This document shows positions 46,293-63,769 of a DNA stretch of 64,000 bases, piece by piece; within the stretch, counting starts at the first letter, position 1, and every line of letters begins with the position of its first letter. The notes under the pieces are model-generated. The model was not told where the DNA came from. It searched no databases and worked only from the letters and a program-made list of their open reading frames with translations. Source of the stretch: a virus; IMG/VR virus record IMGVR_UViG_3300026097_000010, positions 32,001 to 96,000 of that record. One strand, written 5' to 3'. A program made the position numbers and the translations under genes.

Positions 46293-46730
46293 TTACTTCT
46301 GTACGTCGATATTTGCTATAGTGAATCCGTCGCCTAAAATTGAATTATCTTTTCCTGGATTTTCCGATAACTGGTAAGTTAGATGAATCATATTGCTAGG
46401 GTCATCATCTGGCTGGCAACTAACCGTTCTGTTATGCAACTTAGTTACATAGTAAACAGCAGAGTCATTTAATGCTCCGTCTGCATCATCGTCAATTGTT
46501 ACAGCAATGCAAAATTCACCAACTCCCGGAGTTGCTTTTCCTACCAGTGAAAGTTTTTCACTGTTTTCACTATTTTTTACAATAAATTGAAGAGAGCTTC
46601 GTTGGCGATCAATGTAAAGAGGATCAGCAATGTCTCCTGATATTACTCCTCCGGTACTAAATCTTGCTGAAGTTACTTCGATTTTAGCCGTACCTTGACC
46701 AATTTTTCTTTCTTGAATAGGGCGTCCCAT
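46293..46730 (-). CDS. hypothetical virion protein
   Basis: 145 aa (MGRPI...), first gene after the capsid terminator, strong AAGGAG SD. Confidence 0.65.
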   Translation of the reverse strand: MGRPIQERKIGQGTAKIEVTSARFSTGGVISGDIADPLYIDRQRSSLQFIVKNSENSEKLSLVGKATPGVGEFCIAVTIDDDADGALNDSAVYYVTKLHNRTVSCQPDDDPSNMIHLTYQLSENPGKDNSILGDGFTIANIDVQK

Positions 46731-46744
46731 TTGTTTTCTCCTTT

Positions 46745-46835
46745 TTTAGAAGTCCGATGCAGGTTCTAGCTGCTACGCTGTGGGTACAGCATAAGTCCAC
46801 CTTTTAGGGGCACACTATCTGACAAAAGTATTTAT
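46745..46835 (-). promoter_or_regulatory. late promoter plus structured 5' leader (candidate cis-regulatory RNA)
   Basis: ATAAATA box (46829-46835) followed by a multi-stem junction just before the SD. Confidence 0.5.
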
Positions 46836-53385: not shown

Positions 53386-56043
53386 TTACACTGACTGGAA
53401 TAAATCGCCAGTCATTCCTCTTACTGCTCTTAATTGATCTTCTTGTAGCCTATTATTAATTGCCATTAATCTTATCAGCTGATTAATGTTAGTATTTAAT
53501 TGATCTGATGCAGAACTTCCTCCAGACTGAGCAACTGTTTCTGCCGCTGTTTCGGCTGCCTGCTTAGTAGAATCCGCATCTGCCATTTCTTGTTCTTGAG
53601 TAATAGCACTGTCTCTTCCTGCGTCAACACTAGCAACACTTGATCTTTTATCTTTAATAGCTCCTTGTGGATTTAACGCCAGTTGCTTTTGCTCTTCGTC
53701 TGTTAATTTATCTTTAACGAAGCCACTGCCTTGTGCTGTAGCTTCGTCGAGTAGTGTCTGCAATGGATCTGAATAGTCTCGCTTGGTACCGGTCACAGCT
53801 TTGGCAATTTTTTCTTCTTCTCGCTGATTCATTTTAAGCCCAGCGAGTCTGTCTTCCATTGTTTTTGTAGTTTTGTGTTGTTGATGTATTCTTGCTTCGT
53901 CCTCAGCTTGTGCAACTTTGGCAGCAATTTTCTTTAACTGAATCTGTTCATCTTCGACAGCTTCTGTTTTGTTACGCATCCTTTCTTTCGTAGCTAAATC
54001 TCTTCGTCTAGCGGCTGCTTCTTCTTCGCTTAAACCTGCGGCACCGAATGTAATTGTGTTTATTGCCTCGCCTAGGTCAATCATTAGTCGTTCGTACCCA
54101 GTAGCTAGATAATTAAAGAAATCGTCAAATCCATCTTTTATACTGGCAATTAGATAATGAAATCCTTCTTTACTGATGTAGGTTCTTAGTGTATCCCAAG
54201 TTGTGCTAATTGCATCTCCTAGTCCTTTGAATACACCGCTTAAAAATTCTGAATTTGCAATAAAACCAGTGACCATATCTATAAGACCGATAAATCCACC
54301 GATGGCAAATTTAACAACTTCGCCTAAAAATTCAAATGCACCGCTAACATAGTCCCCTACTTCGAGTAATTTCCTGCCTAAAAAGTCTGCTCCGCCGAAC
54401 AAATCTAGTATTTTCAAATACAAAGACTGGAACGGCTCTATTAAACTTAAAGAAGTAGTGACTACACTTTCAAAAACGTTTCTTAGAGCAAGCACTGTTG
54501 CTTCTAGCATTGGCCAAATTGCACTGGCAAAGTTCATTATGCCGTCGCTAACACGCTGAAATGCCGGAACAAAAAGATCTCGGAACATCGGAACAATAAG
54601 AGTTTGAACTACTGTCGCCATCATTCCAAACATATCCATAAGATGTGGAATTAATCCACTGGTTGCTAGAACTTCTTTGAATCCGTTTGAAAATTCTGCT
54701 AGCTGTTGTTTAGCGGCATTAATTTGTTCATTAAATCCATCAGTGCCAGCTTTTGCAGCTCCTTGTGCATTAGCGGCATCTAACACAGCATCTCTCTGTA
54801 GCCTTGATGTGGCAGTTAATGAATTGACCACGCCTGCTAATTCTGGAACGGCAGCACCAGCAGTTTTAATCCTTTGTAGATTTCTTGCACCTTCCTGTTG
54901 CATTAGATTATTAAGAGCATTTCTTTCTTGATCTGAAATCTTTTCTCCTCTCTGCATTCTAGAGTGAAAATCTTGCAACATGGCTGCGGATTCTGGCATT
55001 TGAGCCATTAATTTTTGACTTTCTTCCGAAGTTGCTGTTCCTGTTGCTAAAATATCTTTTGCAAAATCACCTAACTCTTGTGTAGGCATTTGTCCTATCA
55101 AATTACCAAAACTTTTTCTAACATCTTCGTTAAGTCCGGCCATTGACGCTTGGAACTGTGCATCTTTAAGTAATCTTTCACGTTCTGCTTCTTTAGCCTT
55201 GCGTTCTTGTCCTGTAATTTTAGCAAGAGCATCCATTTCTTTTAGATAATCCTGTGTTCCTGACACAAGCTCATCATTATTTTTTGTGTTTTGCATACCT
55301 TGTAATCTAAGATTACGGGCATAATTTGCAAGGCCTTCATTGATTGATTCGGTTGAAAACCCTAGAGCATACAGACCGTCTGAACTGGTTCTTAAAGATC
55401 TAGACAGAGTAGCAAATCTTCTTGCACCTTCAGTGGTAGTGCTTCCTAGGGCAACCATTGCTTCACCGTTTTGTGCAATTAGTCCTGCAAACGCATCTAG
55501 AGTCATACCAGCGGCTGATGCACTTCGTGTCATCTCACTTACACTACCGCCAAAATCTGCACCACTAGCTGTTGCTTGTTGGAAATTCTGAGCCATTGCT
55601 TCAGCTTGTCCGGCTACCGCACCGAACACCGTAGCCAATACACCGCCTACTATAGGAATATGATTAAGTGTTTGAGCGGCAGATGTCAAACTATCACCTA
55701 CATTGGCAAATTCGTCGATAACTTTTGTTGATTCTTCTGCTAATCTAGTAAATCCGCCAACTACATATCCGGCACCGGCAGCAACTAAACCTAAACCTTT
55801 ACCTACCACTCCAACAGTGCCAGATAATCCGCTTAGTGCTTTAGATGCCGCGTTAGCCGTTCCTCCAGAACCGCCGATGGCACCAATACCTCCGCCGCCG
55901 CCAGCTCCGCCTCCGCCAGCTCCGCCGCCACCGGCTCCACTACCTTTCATTAGGGTTACTAGTTCTCTGAGAGTAGATTCAGATGCGGCATTATTTGCTT
56001 CAACTGCACCAACGCCTGGAATATCTACGGTTACTGTTGCCAT
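53386..56043 (-). CDS. probable tape measure protein
   Basis: 885 aa, Ala/Gly-rich amphipathic helical composition, adjacent to the gp26/gp51-like pair. Confidence 0.65.
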   Translation of the reverse strand: MATVTVDIPGVGAVEANNAASESTLRELVTLMKGSGAGGGGAGGGGAGGGGGIGAIGGSGGTANAASKALSGLSGTVGVVGKGLGLVAAGAGYVVGGFTRLAEESTKVIDEFANVGDSLTSAAQTLNHIPIVGGVLATVFGAVAGQAEAMAQNFQQATASGADFGGSVSEMTRSASAAGMTLDAFAGLIAQNGEAMVALGSTTTEGARRFATLSRSLRTSSDGLYALGFSTESINEGLANYARNLRLQGMQNTKNNDELVSGTQDYLKEMDALAKITGQERKAKEAERERLLKDAQFQASMAGLNEDVRKSFGNLIGQMPTQELGDFAKDILATGTATSEESQKLMAQMPESAAMLQDFHSRMQRGEKISDQERNALNNLMQQEGARNLQRIKTAGAAVPELAGVVNSLTATSRLQRDAVLDAANAQGAAKAGTDGFNEQINAAKQQLAEFSNGFKEVLATSGLIPHLMDMFGMMATVVQTLIVPMFRDLFVPAFQRVSDGIMNFASAIWPMLEATVLALRNVFESVVTTSLSLIEPFQSLYLKILDLFGGADFLGRKLLEVGDYVSGAFEFLGEVVKFAIGGFIGLIDMVTGFIANSEFLSGVFKGLGDAISTTWDTLRTYISKEGFHYLIASIKDGFDDFFNYLATGYERLMIDLGEAINTITFGAAGLSEEEAAARRRDLATKERMRNKTEAVEDEQIQLKKIAAKVAQAEDEARIHQQHKTTKTMEDRLAGLKMNQREEEKIAKAVTGTKRDYSDPLQTLLDEATAQGSGFVKDKLTDEEQKQLALNPQGAIKDKRSSVASVDAGRDSAITQEQEMADADSTKQAAETAAETVAQSGGSSASDQLNTNINQLIRLMAINNRLQEDQLRAVRGMTGDLFQSV

Positions 56044-56069
56044 TAATTAAAATCCTAGAAATATGCGTA

Positions 56070-56100
56070 TATAAATATACTGAGTTCGTAATGTATTTAT
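56070..56100. promoter_or_regulatory. face-to-face late promoters
   Basis: TATAAATA (+, 56070-56077) and ATAAATA (-, 56094-56100). Confidence 0.65.
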
Positions 56101-56111
56101 TGGAGAAAAAG

Positions 56112-56957
56112 ATGACTGATTTACAAAATCAAGGAAATTTGTTAAGTCAATACTATAGACAGCCTAAAATTTATATAAGATTGCCTTCTAATGGCGAATT
56201 TTACCCCGATGGAGCACTTGATAAAAGTGAAAACGGTGAGTATGCCGTATACGGCATGACAGCAAAGGACGAACTAATGTTTAAAACGCCCGATGCACTG
56301 TTAAGCGGCCAAAGCACCGTGGAAGTAATTAAAAGCTGTGTACCTGCTATTAAAGACCCTTGGCAAATGCCTACCTTAGATGTAGACACAGTGTTAGTTG
56401 CTATTAGAATTGCAACATTCGGCGATAAAATGGAAATGTCTTCTACTTGTACAGAATGCACAGAATCAAATGACTACGAACTAGACTTAACTAATCTTCT
56501 ATCTAGCTTAGGCAACATCGAATATAACTCAGTTATCGATGTTGATCCTTTAAAAATACATATACGTCCTTATACATACCGAGAAATGACAAAAACTGCT
56601 TTAAAGACTTTTGAACAACAAAGAATCTTTCAAATTATCAACGACGACTCGATGTCCGACGAACAAAAAGTCGATATGTTTGGTCAAAGTTTTGTAAAAA
56701 TTACAGAACTTTCGGTAGATATCATTGCAGGTTGTATCTATGCAATCGAAACACCTCAAGGCACTGTGCAAGATCAAGCACAAATTAAAGATTTTATCAA
56801 TAATACAACTAAAGAAATATTTGACACAATTAGCAATCATATTCAAGCAATGAAAAGTCGTAACGAAATCGAGCCTGTCGACGTTACCTGTACAGGTTGT
56901 GGACATGAATACAAACAACCGTTTACGATGGATCAAGCAAATTTTTTCGATCGATGA
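56112..56957 (+). CDS. baseplate hub / tail assembly chaperone (gp26-like)
   Basis: IRLPSNG, MTAKDEL, DVDTVLVAIRIAT, two CxxC pairs, ends NFF. Start moved to MTDLQNQ after a GGAG SD. Confidence 0.8.
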   Translation: MTDLQNQGNLLSQYYRQPKIYIRLPSNGEFYPDGALDKSENGEYAVYGMTAKDELMFKTPDALLSGQSTVEVIKSCVPAIKDPWQMPTLDVDTVLVAIRIATFGDKMEMSSTCTECTESNDYELDLTNLLSSLGNIEYNSVIDVDPLKIHIRPYTYREMTKTALKTFEQQRIFQIINDDSMSDEQKVDMFGQSFVKITELSVDIIAGCIYAIETPQGTVQDQAQIKDFINNTTKEIFDTISNHIQAMKSRNEIEPVDVTCTGCGHEYKQPFTMDQANFFDR

Positions 56958-57175
56958 TCCTTACGCAAACCGAGTCTGAAATTAGAGATTTTTCAGAGCG
57001 TTTGGATCAAGATGCCAAGGCAATTAAAAAAGAAGCATTAAAAATGTCTTGGTATATGAGAGGAATGGGCTACTCGGAAGCTATGAATTTATCCTACGAC
57101 GAACGAGAAATAGTATCAGACATTATCAAAGAAAACCTAGAAACAACTAAGAAGTCAGGACTACCGTTCTTTTAA
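56954..57175 (+). CDS. baseplate hub assembly protein (gp51-like); possible frameshift extension of the upstream ORF
   Basis: YSEAMNLSYDERE motif. Lies in the -1 frame relative to the upstream gene. Confidence 0.65.
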   Translation: MILTQTESEIRDFSERLDQDAKAIKKEALKMSWYMRGMGYSEAMNLSYDEREIVSDIIKENLETTKKSGLPFF

Positions 57176-58002
57176 GCGGTAGTCGCTGTTGCTGTCTTCG
57201 GTTTTGGAGTAATCTTAGGTTGTTTTTTACCAACCTGTGAAGTCATATTGGTAAATTTTTGGTTGTAGCCCATTTGCTGTCCTGCTTTTTGACCCGTTGT
57301 TGCTGTACTTGCTGTACTTGATGTAGCATCTTTTGCTGTATTTCCACCTTGAGCAGTTGTGTTCTGTGTTTGATCACCGCCTTGAACATTAATATTAATG
57401 TTGTTAGGCTGTGTTGGAGACTGTTGTTGCTGTTGTTGATCTTGTCCAGAACCTTTTTTAGCGTCTAACCCTGCAATTTCTTTTTCTAGCATTTTTCTAA
57501 TTTGTGCTCTTTGCTGTCCAGTTAATCCTGATAGCATATCCTGAGCTTGTTTGTAATTTGTAGCTCTGTTTGGATCCGGTTCTGGAGTTGGAGTTGGTCC
57601 AGGAGTTGGCGTTGGCGTTGGAGTCGGTCCGGGTGTTGGCGTTGGAGTCGGTCCGGGTGTTGGTGTTGGCTGTGGAGTAACTCCTTGAGTACCACCAGCT
57701 CCGCCACTTGTTCCATCAGCACCATCAGCACCATCAGCACCGTCTTTTCCAGAATCGCCATCACTTCCGCCGTCTAAGCTTGTAGTCTTGTAACCTGCTT
57801 TAACACCTTTAGTAAATGCTTTACCTAACCCTGCTAGACCTCCAATTGCGGCACCAGCACCTTTAGCAACTGTACCTGCGGCTGTGCCAGCACCTTTAAC
57901 TATCTTACCACCAATTTCTTTGGCTTTATCTAGCTTAGGACCTTCTGCCAGATATTCTAGTTCGTTAATTTCAGATTCTGTTAAAAAGTCATTGAATTTC
58001 AT
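57172..58002 (-). CDS. low-complexity hypothetical protein, probable internal head protein
   Basis: MKFNDFLTE start, G/A-rich helix, DGA and PT repeats, Q-rich tail. Confidence 0.6.
   Translation of the reverse strand: MKFNDFLTESEINELEYLAEGPKLDKAKEIGGKIVKGAGTAAGTVAKGAGAAIGGLAGLGKAFTKGVKAGYKTTSLDGGSDGDSGKDGADGADGADGTSGGAGGTQGVTPQPTPTPGPTPTPTPGPTPTPTPTPGPTPTPEPDPNRATNYKQAQDMLSGLTGQQRAQIRKMLEKEIAGLDAKKGSGQDQQQQQQSPTQPNNININVQGGDQTQNTTAQGGNTAKDATSSTASTATTGQKAGQQMGYNQKFTNMTSQVGKKQPKITPKPKTATATTA
57583..57740. repeat. coding tandem repeats (Pro-Thr linker and DGA triplets)
   Basis: Exact 24-bp tandem duplication GTTGGCGTTGGAGTCGGTCCGGGT (57611-57658) and CCATCAGCA x3. Confidence 0.85.
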
Positions 58003-59795
58003 GCTGTTGGTCCTGTTGTTTGATATCCACCTTGTTTAATTCCTGCTGGTTGGGTAGCTGGTTTCTTAGCAGGAGCTTTTGTCGTTGTAGAAGATGGTTG
58101 CGATCTACCTAGATATTTTAAAAGTCTACGCTTGTCTTTTGCTGTTAATTTGGCAATATGAGCTTTAACGTCGTTATACGAAAATCCTTGAGCGGCTTTC
58201 TTTCCACCAGCTCCGCCTGTTTGGCCAGTAGGAGATGTTTTTCCTCCAGTAGCACCACCTGTTTGGCTAGCACCACCGTCTTTTGCTTTTGTAGCATTAT
58301 CTTGTTTTGCGTTAGGATCAGTTTGCTTAGGTGCCGCAGGAACTTTCAATTTCATTTGCTTGTATACTGGAGTAATTACTTCGTCGTTAACTCCTTGCTG
58401 ACGTAAAAAGTTTGCCAATTCATTTGAATCTGTAGGCGATCCTGCTTTTTTCCACGCTTTGTTTAGTTTATCTGCGGTAATTTTTGTGGTTAGATTCTTG
58501 CCCATTCGTGAAAAGAAGCCAGGCTTCTTTTCTTTTTGTTCAGGCTCACCTTCGGGTGCTGGCTTAGCATCTTGCTCTGCTTCTGCTTCAGAAAGTATTT
58601 GGATTCTTTCCAGTGTGTTAAAGACCAAATAAACCTGTCCTTCACTGAGTTTAGACTTGTAAAACTCTGTGCTTTCTTTTTTAGATTCACCGTCTTGCAC
58701 AGGTTCACCTTCAACTTTAACATCTTTGCTGTCAAATTTACCTTGTATTGAACCTTGTGCTAGTGCCGCGACAGCATCGTTAACTTTAGTCATTCCTTGT
58801 AAAAACGCATCGTTCTGTTGAGCAACTTCTTTTGCTACAGCATTAATAGCATTTACATTGTCTAAGTATTCGTTAACATCGAACGAATCAGCAAACATTG
58901 ATATTTCTCTAAATGCATCTACATCACCTGCGGCTGCTTTTTCTACAAGAGCCTGTAGTTCAGGCACCATGTCTTCAGGAACGAATATACCAAGGATTGT
59001 GTCTTTAAATGAATAACCCGGCATTTCAAGTGTGTGGGTAAGATTTACATCTACCTTGGCTATTCCAGGTGCTTTATCGTACGGAATAACATCGGCTCTG
59101 ATACCTTCTAGCCAATCGCCAATTCCTTCCAGTGCCCAACCTGCCATAGCACCATATGCAGCAGTCTTTACTGACTTACCAACGGCTGTGGATAGTTTTT
59201 CACCTTTGAGCAATTCATTGGCCGATCTTAAAAAGAAACCAGCGGCAGCACCACCTGCTGGTCCAGCGGCAAACGCCGCGGCAGCGGTTAAAATACCAAC
59301 TGCTAGACTTGCTTTTCCTGGATTGGCTTTTGCCCAATCAGAAACTGACTTGATTCTTTTTGCTACTTCGGGATTATCTGTGGAAATCTTTTTCTTTAGT
59401 TCTTCGAACTTGGCATCTATATTTTTAATAGGACCAGCATTTTGAACCATTCTGCCTAGCTCATTGATTTTATCGTCAATGGCTGATACAACTTTACCTG
59501 GTAATTTAGCGGCATCTACGCCTTTTCCTACCATGGTTCTGTTACTGCCACTTGCTGTAGCACCTTGCTCTACATTGCCAAATATCTGTTGGATTTGATC
59601 AGCTGATAATGTTGCTTCCATTAATCGCAATTCAGCAATAAGAGGTTCAAACCCATTATAAAATTCATAAACAACTTTGCGTTGCTTGGTTGTAAGTCCA
59701 CTCATTGATTCGATAAGAATCTTACGAGATTCATACATCTGTGCTTCAACAAGAGACTGTCGTGATTCTACAATTGTAACTTCATTTAGTTTCAT
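57999..59795 (-). CDS. hypothetical protein, probable internal head/ejection protein
   Basis: MKLNEV start, several L-x-E sites, hydrophobic Ala/Gly hairpin LAVGILTAAAAFAAGPAGGAAAGFFL. Confidence 0.55.
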   Translation of the reverse strand: MKLNEVTIVESRQSLVEAQMYESRKILIESMSGLTTKQRKVVYEFYNGFEPLIAELRLMEATLSADQIQQIFGNVEQGATASGSNRTMVGKGVDAAKLPGKVVSAIDDKINELGRMVQNAGPIKNIDAKFEELKKKISTDNPEVAKRIKSVSDWAKANPGKASLAVGILTAAAAFAAGPAGGAAAGFFLRSANELLKGEKLSTAVGKSVKTAAYGAMAGWALEGIGDWLEGIRADVIPYDKAPGIAKVDVNLTHTLEMPGYSFKDTILGIFVPEDMVPELQALVEKAAAGDVDAFREISMFADSFDVNEYLDNVNAINAVAKEVAQQNDAFLQGMTKVNDAVAALAQGSIQGKFDSKDVKVEGEPVQDGESKKESTEFYKSKLSEGQVYLVFNTLERIQILSEAEAEQDAKPAPEGEPEQKEKKPGFFSRMGKNLTTKITADKLNKAWKKAGSPTDSNELANFLRQQGVNDEVITPVYKQMKLKVPAAPKQTDPNAKQDNATKAKDGGASQTGGATGGKTSPTGQTGGAGGKKAAQGFSYNDVKAHIAKLTAKDKRRLLKYLGRSQPSSTTTKAPAKKPATQPAGIKQGGYQTTGPTA

Positions 59796-59839: not shown

Positions 59840-60328
59840 CTAGAGAACGATCTAAAGATCGTTTGCGTTATCGCTTACGCTCAACGCATTTTTTTTAATT
59901 ATTAACTGCGAAGCAGTTTTAGTATTATCTAGATTGTTCGGTCATAAAGAGCCCGTTGCGGGGCTCAATATTTTCTGCACATTATCTGAGTTGCACAGTC
60001 ATAACAGCATTAGGATTATATGTATTGCTACACTCGCAGGCGGTTGGCCGATACCTGCTCATCCCGTTCGAGTTTCTAGTTGTCCAACGGCAGCCATGTA
60101 TATAAAATGCTGTCTTTTATACATGACCTGGGTTTGTTCCCATCCTTAGCCTATAAAATTTTGTTCTAAACGCATCAAACTGGTTAATTAGGCATATCCA
60201 GTCATCATCATCTGGTAGTGATACGAGTCTCCGCCGTCAAACGAATATTCAATTCCCTGCGCAACTCTGGTGCCAGGTGTAAGTCCACTATAACTGCGCC
60301 AGTGGAGGCTTAATTGACGGTGTTTTGC
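59840..60328 (-). ncRNA. candidate large structured non-coding RNA
   Basis: ORF-free ~490 nt with more than 10 stems, two possible pseudoknots, a GCAA tetraloop and G-U pairs that work only on the minus strand. Confidence 0.65.
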
Positions 60329-60754
60329 CTATAATTTTTTAAGATGTTCTTTAAGAATGTTTGAACTGCCTACACGCACATTGATAATACCGTTATAGTA
60401 TTCATCCGTTTCTAGTACACGCCTGTCGAATTGCTCTTTAGCCTCTAGATAACTTAATACGCCTCTGCTAGGACAAAAATGAAGGATTTCTCTTGTGAAT
60501 TTGTCTGGGCCTAATGCCTTTACATCAGCATTTAGATGATCTGAAGATCCCCAATAGTCTCTCCAGTCACTTTCTACTGTGCTACGCCTTTTATTTTTTC
60601 TGCCTTTGAGTGGTGGTCTAGTTTTTTTGAATCGTGCTAGTTTTTTGCCTATGTATTTTTTATTGTTAGTAATATTTGTGATCAGATAGACAAAGCCTTC
60701 GCAATCTTTAGGAAGTTCTTGTACTATTTGACCGTTGTAAGTCCACTCTGACAT
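60329..60754 (-). CDS. small GIY-YIG family nuclease
   Basis: GFVYLITN-x4-KKYIGKK, YWGSS, FTREIL, E...YYN. Confidence 0.85.
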   Translation of the reverse strand: MSEWTYNGQIVQELPKDCEGFVYLITNITNNKKYIGKKLARFKKTRPPLKGRKNKRRSTVESDWRDYWGSSDHLNADVKALGPDKFTREILHFCPSRGVLSYLEAKEQFDRRVLETDEYYNGIINVRVGSSNILKEHLKKL

Positions 60755-60759
60755 CAGAC

Positions 60760-60987
60760 TTACTTAGTTTTCTTCGGTCTCCCTACCATGCCTTTTCTGG
60801 CGGCCTTTCGCGCTTCACGCTTTGCTTGTATTTCTTTGCGCCTCTCGGAAGCATGGTTTCTAATTTCACTCAGCCAAAAACGTGCTTTAATACCTGCTTC
60901 GTCAGAGCCTTTGTATTCAAAGTTTGTTTGCCATTTGAAGTATTCTTGGAATGCTTCAATCATTTTATCGTGACTGTCAGTGGCCAT
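60760..60987 (-). CDS. small basic hypothetical protein
   Basis: 75 aa, helical, K/R-rich tail, coupled to gp46. Confidence 0.7.
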   Translation of the reverse strand: MATDSHDKMIEAFQEYFKWQTNFEYKGSDEAGIKARFWLSEIRNHASERRKEIQAKREARKAARKGMVGRPKKTK

Positions 60988-62762
60988 TACACTATATCTA
61001 CATCCGTTGAGTAGGAAGTGAATCCGTTTTCCTTGATCACTTTCAGAACTTGGCTGACTCTATTAGTTAAGTCATCTCTGTGAGATATTAAAAACACATT
61101 TTTGTCACGCTCACGGGTCATCTTTTTCAGCACACTTATGCTGTTTTCAACACCGTTCGCATCTAATCCGTTGTCAATCAGTTCGTCAATGAACAACAGG
61201 TTGATCGAGTGATACAGATTTTCCCACACATCTCTAAACGCAAAACTTAAAGACAGGATTAATCTGTTGCGTTCACCTCTTGATAGATTGTCAAAATCTA
61301 AATCCTGACCTAACTGTGTGATAATCACGCTGAGGTCATTTTGAAACTCCACTAGATGTGGCAGACCTGTCTTGTTCAAATAGTATGTAAGACGTTGATT
61401 TAAAAATGCAAGATTCTGATCGATAATGCGTTTGCGAATATAACTGTCCTTGTTGGTAAGCAGTTTGTATAAAAACTCTTGATGCTCTTTGATCCGAGTA
61501 AGTTCATTGACAGTGTCCCAGTTAATTTCTTGCATTGCACTGTCTTTCAGTTCTGCAATTTGATCGTCGTAAGGATTGGTTTCTGTGTTTTTGTTCTCTA
61601 ATTCTTTTTCTAATCCGTCAATCGTTGCTCTATGATTAAGAGCTTCTTCTAACGTACTGTATTCTACACTGGGACAATCACCGAGTTCTCCAATCAAAGA
61701 CAGTGCTTCATTATAATCTCCAAGCTCACTAGACTGTGTATCCACACGCTTTTGATAGTCAGCAACCTGCTCTGCTTTTTTCTCAACCATCGATTCGTGC
61801 TGATCGTCGTGAACTTCTTGACCGCAAGCGTGGCACTTGTGATCTGCCAGTTTTTCCAATTCGATTTGCAATTTGTCTAAATGACGTTGATCATTTTCTA
61901 CCTGTGTAACCAATCTTGCGACTGTTTTTTCAAGCTGATCTTTTTCTCTCTTGTGTTCACGCCATTGCTGTAGTGCTTTTTGTTTTTCAATTTCTACATC
62001 AATATCAATATGATCCAAGACAGAAATACTCTGTGCAATGTCTTTGAGAGACTGTGCTTTGTTATCATCCCACATACGCTTCTTGCGTTCAAGGCTTTCG
62101 ATGCTTTGTTGTATACGTTCGTTTGATGCTTTAATTGCTTCAATTTTGGTAGTTTCTGTCTGTATTTCGTCTTTGGTAAATTTAATCTGTTCTTTGAGAT
62201 TTTCTGCTTTTTCTGAAAGCATAGTAATACCCAGTAACTGTTCAATGATAGCTCGTTGGTCATTACTTCGCATACTCAAAAACGGTTCAGTATATGTGTT
62301 CAATGCCACAAGATGCTTGAACATATCGTGACTCATTCCGAACAGTTCTTCGATAGACTTTTGTGTTTCTCGGCTATCGCCTTGACTTTCGTCAGCATCT
62401 TCGGGTGTGTGTTCGTGACCGTTTACACTTAATTTTAGAAAATTGGGTTTGCGTCCACGTTCAATATGATATTCAACGCCGTCCTTTTCAAAGGAACATG
62501 TAACCAGCATATTCTTGCCATTGATTTTGTTAATAAGATTGTCTTTTTTAATATTAGTCAATGCAGAACCGTAAATGGCATAAGAAAGCCCGTTCACAAT
62601 GGTAGTTTTACCTGTTCCGTTTCTAGCACCACCATCATCGCCTCCTAGATCTAAGTTCTCACCTAACACCAAAGTAAGATGACCTTTATCAAAATCAATA
62701 GCCTGCGTTTGATTGCCCACACTCATAAAATTTTGTACTGTTAGTGTCTTGATTTTAATCAT
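60987..62762 (-). CDS. recombination endonuclease ATPase subunit (gp46/Rad50/SbcC-like)
   Basis: NFMSVGN, NGTGKTT, CHACGQ zinc hook, LSRGE signature, LLFIDE, ISH. Confidence 0.96.
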   Translation of the reverse strand: MIKIKTLTVQNFMSVGNQTQAIDFDKGHLTLVLGENLDLGGDDGGARNGTGKTTIVNGLSYAIYGSALTNIKKDNLINKINGKNMLVTCSFEKDGVEYHIERGRKPNFLKLSVNGHEHTPEDADESQGDSRETQKSIEELFGMSHDMFKHLVALNTYTEPFLSMRSNDQRAIIEQLLGITMLSEKAENLKEQIKFTKDEIQTETTKIEAIKASNERIQQSIESLERKKRMWDDNKAQSLKDIAQSISVLDHIDIDVEIEKQKALQQWREHKREKDQLEKTVARLVTQVENDQRHLDKLQIELEKLADHKCHACGQEVHDDQHESMVEKKAEQVADYQKRVDTQSSELGDYNEALSLIGELGDCPSVEYSTLEEALNHRATIDGLEKELENKNTETNPYDDQIAELKDSAMQEINWDTVNELTRIKEHQEFLYKLLTNKDSYIRKRIIDQNLAFLNQRLTYYLNKTGLPHLVEFQNDLSVIITQLGQDLDFDNLSRGERNRLILSLSFAFRDVWENLYHSINLLFIDELIDNGLDANGVENSISVLKKMTRERDKNVFLISHRDDLTNRVSQVLKVIKENGFTSYSTDVDIV

Positions 62763-63769
62763 AAGTTTTGATAGATATCCAGTAATATTTTTTGATCGTA
62801 ATTTTCACTTTCGATTTGATTGAGCTGATTCATCACAATAGTATCAACACTTTCAAAGTTTAAATCAATAGGCTCTGATTGTGAATCCAGTTCTACTTTT
62901 TCTGGAATCATCATTAGTTCGCGAAGCCCGTATCTAGGAATAAGTTCTTCTTTAATAAAGTTTGCTTCTTCAAACGAAATTTCAACATCGATCGTTGCTC
63001 GAACATGCATTTTTTCTCGGAGAACAGAATCTGTGTCTTCTAGTAATTCACTGAGTTTCATGGTTCTGTAAACAGGCTGTTCAGGCCACGCTTCGTACTC
63101 AGGTACGCCTCCCCATTCTAAGGTCATCATTCCTCGATCATCGTCCCACGCATCTGCATAATTGTGCGGAAATGCATTGCCCATATACACAATATTGCCT
63201 TTTTGCTGACGTTTGTGAAAATGACCTGAAAACACATATTCTGCATTTTGAAAGTGACTAGAACGGAGAGTTCCGTGATCTGGCATTTGTACCATTGCAT
63301 TCATATAGAAACTAGGCAGTTCAAAATGTCCAAACATATATCTTGAAGTGTCTTTTTCAATCAGCTTCCATTCGTCACCCACTAACCAGGGAAATATAGT
63401 TACTTCGCCTTCTGTGAATGGTTCTCTGATAGGAACAACATTAGGAAACAGTCGCATAAACTCCACTGAGTTAATCTCACGCTTGTCTTTGTAAAACAGA
63501 TCGTGATTTCCTAGAATAAAATATACTTTTTCAAAGTTTTTGCTCAGTGTTTCTAGATTGCTCAGAGTATAGTTCATTGTGGATACATCTGTAGAACTAC
63601 GATTGTGATGCCAGTCGCCTAAAAAGATACAGGTTTCTGCACCTTTTTCTTGTGCTCTTTTACAGAACCAATCCACAAACTGTTCACAGTCGATATTGTG
63701 AACTCTGCTACCGCTTTTCATACCAAAATGAATATCGGTAAAGCAGGCCGCTTTTTTAAATAAAGACAT
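62759..63769 (-). CDS. recombination endonuclease nuclease subunit (gp47/Mre11/SbcD-like)
   Basis: TDIHFG, LGDW, GNHD, GHFE, SGHFH metallophosphoesterase motifs. Confidence 0.96.
   Translation of the reverse strand: MSLFKKAACFTDIHFGMKSGSRVHNIDCEQFVDWFCKRAQEKGAETCIFLGDWHHNRSSTDVSTMNYTLSNLETLSKNFEKVYFILGNHDLFYKDKREINSVEFMRLFPNVVPIREPFTEGEVTIFPWLVGDEWKLIEKDTSRYMFGHFELPSFYMNAMVQMPDHGTLRSSHFQNAEYVFSGHFHKRQQKGNIVYMGNAFPHNYADAWDDDRGMMTLEWGGVPEYEAWPEQPVYRTMKLSELLEDTDSVLREKMHVRATIDVEISFEEANFIKEELIPRYGLRELMMIPEKVELDSQSEPIDLNFESVDTIVMNQLNQIESENYDQKILLDIYQNL

Follow-up and report, generated by a model that had tools for sequence, protein, structure and literature searches.

What occupies the long stretch without open reading frames that lies directly behind a small nuclease gene in this viral DNA, and is the nuclease its partner or only its neighbour? 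The window (the whole stretch of 64,000 nucleotides analysed here) is part of a 152-kb contig, and a first-pass annotation had placed in the gap a large, ornate RNA on the minus strand, which might act alone or form an RNA-guided or RNA-regulated ribonucleoprotein with the nuclease. The gap is as described, running for about 530 nt from the end of the nuclease ORF to 59795, and ranks among the two largest ORF-free gaps in the contig. It holds a real conserved element, made up of a pseudoknotted RNA of about 400 nt, twin boxes and a tail of DNA-type mini-hairpins, at 60320-59846 on the minus strand.

Upstream there is an operon on the minus strand (60760..63769), with genes for SbcD/gp47, SbcC/gp46 and a basic 75-aa protein, and beyond the 75-aa ORF a gp55-like gene lies just past the end of the window. 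The order of this upstream operon is the same in cultured relatives, and the element is at the end of what can be written as a gp55-gp47-gp46-resolvase operon. On the other side, the slot between the element and gp51 is variable. In the window (57172-59795, minus strand) it is occupied by two unannotated low-complexity ORFs of 598 and 276 aa, starting MK(L/F)N(E/D) and with a late core ahead of them at 59828-59823, and similar N-termini are found in this slot in relatives. The gp26-like and gp51-like ORFs (55983-57175, plus strand) overlap where they join. Elsewhere in the window (46728-46812, minus strand) there is a freshwater-2 RNA (RF02980, 73.9 bits) that ends at a ribosome-binding site.

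RNA-first searches gave several hundred loci, and for covariation we used 63 dereplicated homologs with a mean identity of 62%, and 73 named pairs. In this set 87.9% of cells are paired and 58 of the 73 pairs show two-sided (compensatory) change, a result reached by none of 500 shuffles; slid controls are 33-42% paired. Counted on the tree there are about 280 joint compensatory changes (a total that includes 2 from the mis-specified PK2, P8, P11 and T2) against 12.7 +/- 3.9 for a null of matched random columns. Compensatory change is present in the previously drawn helices P2, P3, P5, P7, P8, the long P9, P11, P12 and P13, so that the large conserved RNA is borne out by covariation. The minus strand gives a better fold than its shuffles do (z -3.2, against -1.2 for the plus strand), and in the body G-U pairs are far above A-C (101:0 in P7, 73:6 in P9), which fixes the RNA strand as minus, the polarity given at the outset. 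The GNRA loops of the body are as expected of RNA.

The structured body (59924..60320, minus strand) has at least four pseudoknots, with box 2 at its end. Its 5' domain (60168..60310) is Polynucleobacter-1, RF01718 of Rfam, matched over the full model (1-141) at 95.7 bits where the gathering score is 37; the 5' third is thus already in Rfam, but the remainder of the element is outside the model. The outer 7-bp helix proposed earlier is a real pairing but not a simple enclosing helix, as it forms a pseudoknot with the loop of the hairpin 60245-60230 (mean 4.65 bp, against 3.2-3.4 with shuffled partners). In PK1 (60234..60320) the 5' strand 60320-60314 pairs with a hairpin loop at 60240-60234, and in many relatives this 5' strand overlaps the final codons of the GIY-YIG gene. 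In the core (60005..60127) the loop of stem P9 (60127-60093) pairs with 60009-60005 to give PK3, further parts being PK4 (60064-60062/60015-60013), P11 (60058-60036) and a variable P12, and hairpin P13 (59949..59966) lies between the boxes; all are on the minus strand. Pairs have changed on both sides at nine of nine positions in P9, four of five in PK3 and three of three in PK4. PK0, PK1, PK3 and PK4 covary, and PK2 is conserved but not above null.

Not every pairing drawn by eye survives. The complementarity of the 60193/60150 pseudoknot is conserved but its covariation is not above null, pairing of the P2 loop with the inner part of P3 scores 2.86 against a null of 2.88, and the 60090/60064 helix shows no compensatory change, 60064 serving another pseudoknot. 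The earlier fold lacked two pseudoknots (60112-60108/60009-60005 and 60064-60062/60015-60013) as well as twin boxes and tail. Part of the invariance of the central motif is imposed by the search patterns used. In other phages two further 5' architectures (classes A and B) are found behind the same gene, leading into the same 3' part.

The twin boxes are two copies of AGATAAT on the minus strand: box 1 at 59981..59987 with ACTC before it, and box 2 at 59924..59930 with ATCT before it. They are identical to each other in 187 of 189 loci (a set for which the tail motif was required in the search pattern) where 14% would be expected, with more than 14 variants, and in all 71 loci of another set. 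On the tree the boxes change together 22 times, with one solitary change. The three bases preceding the two boxes differ, and the search patterns account for part of the invariance of the four bases ahead of each box. There is no consensus pairing around the boxes, and looking across the genome for the box complement or for additional boxes gave no meaningful sites. It is the identity of the boxes, rather than complementarity, that is conserved, as would follow from a single reader binding both, or from pairing of one copy with the other's template strand. The bases at +7 and +8 are compatible with box-1 RNA on the box-2 template in 97% and 88% and with the reverse in 29% and 68%, a weak hint that would favour the former, although the asymmetry could come from local RNA pairing instead. 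Reading the boxes as a K-turn or C/D box was rejected, there being no consensus pairing and the would-be G-A position being variable, and the GIY-YIG protein was rejected as box reader as no residue of it changes with the box variants.

Beyond box 2 there are hairpins of DNA type. T1 (59904..59918, plus strand) is a C(GAA)G mini-hairpin on the template strand, and T2 and T3 (59846..59888, minus strand) are on the RNA-sense strand, T2 having a central GC(GNNA)GC mini-hairpin with an A-tract ahead of it and T3 a C(GNA)G or C(TTTA)G loop. These hairpins are strand-symmetric, with G-U:A-C ratios of 4:2 for T3, 9:11 for T1 and 20:34 for T2. In 191 loci, for which the tail motif was not required in the search, mini-hairpins with stems of at least 4 bp are present on the sense strand in 84% and on the antisense strand in 48%, against 4% and 2% in shuffled controls and 0-10% in the RNA body. 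Long hairpins of the tail loop type number only two per genome in each of two genomes, and in one genome (G008) the commonest loop is C(UUCG)G, unlike those of the tail. Extra-stable DNA mini-hairpins of this type are found at the priming sites of G4 and RSF1010 and at N4 promoters (PMC13037366).

The A-tract precedes T2 in 95 of the 191 loci, as for a plus-strand terminator, and T1 and P13 score as plus-strand terminators. Together with the multi-pseudoknot core and its invariant bases this would suit a ribozyme or intron remnant, or an RNA that one endoribonuclease cleaves at both boxes, the tail acting only as a two-way terminator. We regard this as very unlikely, as neither Rfam nor ARAGORN gave a match for any of the three RNA classes, even at E 10, to a ribozyme, group I or II intron, RNase P or tmRNA, or indeed to GOLLD or ROOL; there is no interrupted gene, two complete genomes have no reverse transcriptase, and the tail loops are not those of the C(UUCG)G hairpins in G008. 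A resemblance to RNase P was likewise dropped, having no Rfam support at E 10, as was template jumping of telomerase-like or DRT-like type, there being no reverse transcriptase in the two complete genomes.

With regard to the nuclease, the linkage is close. In 157 of 168 loci (about 93%), and in 64 of 77 in another set, the RNA follows directly on the GIY-YIG gene, and adjacency of the flanks is looser (78/146 and 38/136). Of 37 loci scored, about half have the stop codon at the first RNA hairpin or within it, and in one rearranged locus (L206) the RNA precedes the gene and the two are still together. Adjacency, the L206 arrangement, a probable shared promoter and the basic insert of the protein (in the model a beta-hairpin of residues 41-61, in agreement with the earlier observation of a basic insert) are the points in favour of a GIY-YIG ribonucleoprotein. 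However tight linkage of gene and RNA is explicable by the overlap of PK1 with the ORF end and the shared promoter, and each of the two is found alone. The intact element occurs with a RusA-like nuclease instead, never with both, and 10 of 10 chromosomal copies examined in Polynucleobacter are without such a nuclease, as is a copy at L326:6700-7300, which has neither nuclease nor sbcC within 7 kb upstream. Conversely phage Melnitz has a GIY-YIG protein with the same basic insert, 81% identical, and no RNA anywhere, and in P-SSM2, ACP17 and phiM12 there is no gap behind the GIY-YIG gene. An unrelated ORF is inserted between gene and RNA in 11 of 168 loci, the GIY-YIG tree shows about 17 switches of RNA class, and the protein has no residue that tracks the box variants. 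No guide-like segment was seen, both RNA ends being structured and conserved. We thus give a ribonucleoprotein, whether RNA-guided or RNA-regulated, hardly any probability; the element is not a new RNA-guided nuclease, and of the first-pass proposals it is the RNA acting alone that gains support. Some coupling of the element to the nuclease gene remains. At one locus (L114:1837-2478) an inserted second GIY-YIG ORF, homing-endonuclease-like, separates the conserved GIY-YIG gene from the RNA.

The nuclease gene (60329..60754, minus strand) encodes a stand-alone GIY-YIG protein of 141 aa, of SegE type by profile matches (PF19835 and phrog_447, which carries the mislabel 'NAD synthetase'). The model (pLDDT 93.9) is closest to the catalytic domain of I-TevI (Z 8.4, rmsd 2.7, 82 aligned), and Y23, Y34, E104 and N121 are invariant in 50 sequences, the fold and the catalytic Tyr, Glu and Asn being those of the superfamily. 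By our own reading the position of I-TevI Arg27 is not Arg here, and K37/K38 are invariant. The protein is 42% identical to PSSM2_218. In several phages PF24608/phrog_244 (a RusA-like/PD-(D/E)XK resolvase) replaces GIY-YIG in its slot, and the two are never found together: two complete genomes with GIY-YIG gave no match to the phrog_244 family, RusA, RuvC or Endo VII (the Endo VII search having no positive control), and a 192-kb fragment with PF24608/phrog_244 gave none to GIY-YIG. The distribution is thus complementary, in few complete genomes, and the slot is shared with known resolvases. Uri/GIY-YIG proteins have been proposed as jumbo-phage resolvases by Iyer et al. (PMC7824862), and from distribution and gene order this one is most likely the Holliday-junction or branch resolvase of RaK2/PA5oct-like jumbo phages and merely a neighbour of the RNA. 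For phrog_447, a widespread phage gene, candidate junction resolvase is a better reading than 'NAD synthetase'.

A late-promoter-like hexamer, TAAGTA (60761..60766, minus strand; a consensus match), is 6 nt before the GIY-YIG start codon. Such hexamers lie 4-6 nt ahead of the start in 36 of 137 GIY-YIG genes as against 0 of 77 sbcC genes, and exact late cores in this genome have their peak spacing at 4-5 nt. The hexamer is a putative start for a leaderless late transcript that would span the GIY-YIG gene and the RNA. The gene downstream of the RNA is co-directional in 72 loci and convergent in 69, so the RNA is not an mRNA leader. The word AGGCA, at 60326-60331 (minus strand) in the window and in many relatives, recurs 10-30 nt ahead of the RNA, often in several copies, and also precedes some GIY-YIG starts; it is possibly a processing or promoter signal.

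Where tested, the uncultured RaK2/PA5oct-like jumbo phages, which are aquatic, carry the element once per genome: G008, G009, G010 and G011 have one copy each and G004 one strong match. No DNA match was found in cultured phages or plasmids, and 14 matches to the twin-box pattern in bacterial genome contigs were set aside as mis-binned phage contigs plus one chance match. The closest cultured phages are Phosso, PA5oct, Atu_ph07 and RaK2 by SbcC, and CBB by gp26. Five cultured relatives keep the order gp55-gp47-gp46 ... gp26, with a RusA-like enzyme or Endo VII in the sbcC-gp26 slot. Beside the resolvase PA5oct (L349:5660-7190), Phosso (L351:5250-6290) and CBB (L353:5340-6140) have long GC-richer non-coding tracts, followed in Phosso by RNase HI and containing in PA5oct a word like the class B loop module. 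Homology to the element is not detectable in the non-coding tracts of PA5oct, Phosso, CBB and RaK2, and the tracts beside the resolvase are possibly analogous to it. The four published ncRNAs of PA5oct lie elsewhere (PMC7318152). In Atu_ph07 (L350:2819-3202) there is a homolog of the phrog_244-like resolvase where the record annotates only short hypothetical ORFs.

The copies in Polynucleobacter are of particular value, as a complete element in the chromosome of a cultured bacterium makes it testable without an uncultured phage. RF01718 is present in 13 of 121 Polynucleobacter genomes, and each of the 10 chromosomal copies examined is complete, having PK1, PK3, boxes and tail. The boxes are identical to each other in seven of the ten, with four new variants. 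One match, at 2130772, falls on the copy that the 2010 paper gives for strain QLW-P1DMWA-1, and the flank of that copy in the 2010 Stockholm file has twin boxes of a new type. Neither GIY-YIG nor PD-(D/E)XK was matched in any of the ten, within 15-16 kb around each. The copies lie in conserved islands (L488:7141-12399 and L489-L497) with a shared cassette of 5-7 kb comprising a divergent DUF6641 gene, the RNA, variable cargo, a 188-aa tyrosine recombinase and two unassigned proteins. DUF6641 and the recombinase are in 10 of 10 islands, and nine have a T4-type clamp-loader ATPase (phrog_168, E 2e-22) that is 27-30% identical to a gene of jumbo phage G008. All ten have a late core of T4 type, TAAATA, 31-65 nt upstream of the motif (a consensus match). 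The cassette is at different chromosomal sites, with two copies in two genomes, and some islands are flanked by short palindromic repeats or carry a second integrase. The island yielded no identifiable Rep, primase or helicase, its 293-aa all-helical protein gave no fold match, and neither viral contigs nor plasmids showed a free form. Small, sporadic, integrated, with a recombinase and no recognised capsid gene, the islands have the traits of phage satellites, and with moderate confidence we suggest that they are helper-dependent satellites of T4-like phages.

Phage and capsid-less island both need replication and packaging in cis, and these are thus candidate functions for the element. We tentatively prefer replication, at somewhat less than an even chance, and suggest that the element may be a cis-acting, transcript-activated, RNA-primed origin. 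A single-copy, promoter-driven RNA with self-matching boxes followed by priming-type hairpins fits a transcript-activated origin, the promoter and the priming signals being consensus matches. A late-type promoter would drive the RNA, which would fold; box 1 of the RNA would then re-pair with the template strand at box 2, or alternatively both boxes would bind one initiator, in either case giving a persistent RNA-DNA hybrid. The RNA 3' end of the hybrid would prime the leading strand, and the displaced strand and template would expose the mini-hairpins as loading sites for primase or helicase. A satellite would borrow both the origin and the replisome of its helper. In T4, origins work through R-loops formed by transcripts and lie close to strand switches, and one of them, oriC, may depend on a late promoter (PMC3016281). 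Skew in G000 and G008 tracks the coding strand and shows no replication switch at the element, and GC skew is uninformative on an origin here. Against an origin, the pseudoknotted 5' domain with its three interchangeable architectures is beyond the known needs of primer RNAs, and cultured relatives replicate without a detectable copy of the element.

The late promoter fits packaging as well as replication. The element could be a packaging-initiation or concatemer-processing site coupled to late transcription, at which the RNA opens or marks the site, terminase or resolvase reads boxes and hairpins, and the satellite is thereby packaged by its helper. T4 late transcription needs the clamp loader, which counts in its favour, as do the late-type promoter in phages and in 10 of 10 islands, the fixed position beside the resolvase slot (where cultured relatives likewise have a long non-coding tract), and the need for a packaging signal in islands without a recognisable capsid gene. 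We nevertheless think it quite improbable, given that the element is inside contigs, that the terminal repeats of PA5oct lie elsewhere (PMC7318152), and that mini-hairpins are documented at priming and promoter sites and not at pac sites (PMC13037366).

The other possibility is that the RNA acts in trans, as a late-expressed scaffold or decoy that would hold two copies of a phage or host protein on its twin boxes, the islands carrying it as a mimic with which to interfere with the helper or exploit it. The elaborate tertiary fold with GNRA loops in the body would be in keeping with this, identical boxes would suit a homodimeric reader, the L326 copy stands alone away from sbcC, and the RNA is no mRNA leader by the 72 co-directional and 69 convergent loci. 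However it leaves unexplained the strand-symmetric DNA-type tail in all classes and in the islands, and no reader has been found, GIY-YIG being excluded; we take it to be unlikely. Returning to the RNA-primed origin, a wider and still more tentative proposal is that a large family of aquatic jumbo phages may start replication (or packaging) at a pseudoknotted RNA of 400 nt, locked by its twin boxes onto its own template next to the DNA mini-hairpins, and that a new class of Polynucleobacter satellites may have stolen the signal together with late promoter and clamp loader. Were the origin reading true, a phage would have a structured primer RNA, this group of jumbo phages would gain its first defined origin, and the islands would be a new type of satellite.

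With regard to earlier descriptions, RF01718 has been catalogued without a function since 2010 and is now the 5' third of a larger element with defined anatomy. In the account of the motif by Weinberg et al. (PMC2864571) most copies are downstream of GOS11034/PSSM2_218-like genes, the 3' half was not always detected and no purified phage had the motif; the accompanying Stockholm alignment already holds unaligned pieces of the downstream 3' part, and the account does not seem to describe the island context in Polynucleobacter. Our element shares with Polynucleobacter-1 the 5' 143 nt (95.7 bits) and the association with a PSSM2_218-like (GIY-YIG) gene. The Rfam model covers one third of it, without PK1, PK3, PK4, twin boxes or tail, and classes A and B, which share the 3' part, are not in Rfam. 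It is the anatomy as a whole, with its DNA-type tail quantified and a cassette resembling a satellite, that opens this long-unexplained motif to direct tests in a cultured host.

Among RNAs with a nuclease neighbour, the HEARO/omega RNA of IscB and the reRNA of TnpB are likewise structured and abut or overlap the end of a small nuclease gene. Our element differs in having no guide segment or transposon ends and in its fixed sbcC-gp26 locus, and the obligate RNA-nuclease pairing of HEARO/omega is not seen, the nuclease being replaceable, dispensable, and GIY-YIG rather than RuvC/HNH. GOLLD and ROOL are also large, pseudoknotted and phage-borne, but there is no covariance-model match to them, and the element is not beside tRNAs and has twin boxes and a DNA-type tail.

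ColE1 RNA II is the primer-transcript model for an RNA-primed origin. We propose a likeness to it and to T4 oriF/oriG, in that a promoter-driven transcript ends at an AT-richer tract near a strand switch with priming signals downstream, although there is no sequence similarity and no plasmid match, and no analogue of antisense RNA I was seen. A further difference is that R-loop origins of T4 span some 100 bp and have no requirement for a particular RNA sequence (PMC3016281). The complementary-strand origin of G4 and ssiA/ssiB of RSF1010 resemble the tail in having GCG-N(N)-AGC and C(GNA)G mini-hairpins on opposite strands (PMC13037366); in our case these follow a large structured RNA, and no cognate primase has been identified.

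Phage satellites of PICI and PLE type and the Polynucleobacter island are alike in being small and sporadic, in their several integration sites, in having a recombinase, a late promoter of helper type and a clamp loader, and in showing no recognised capsid gene. The island differs from them in having no recognised Rep or primase.
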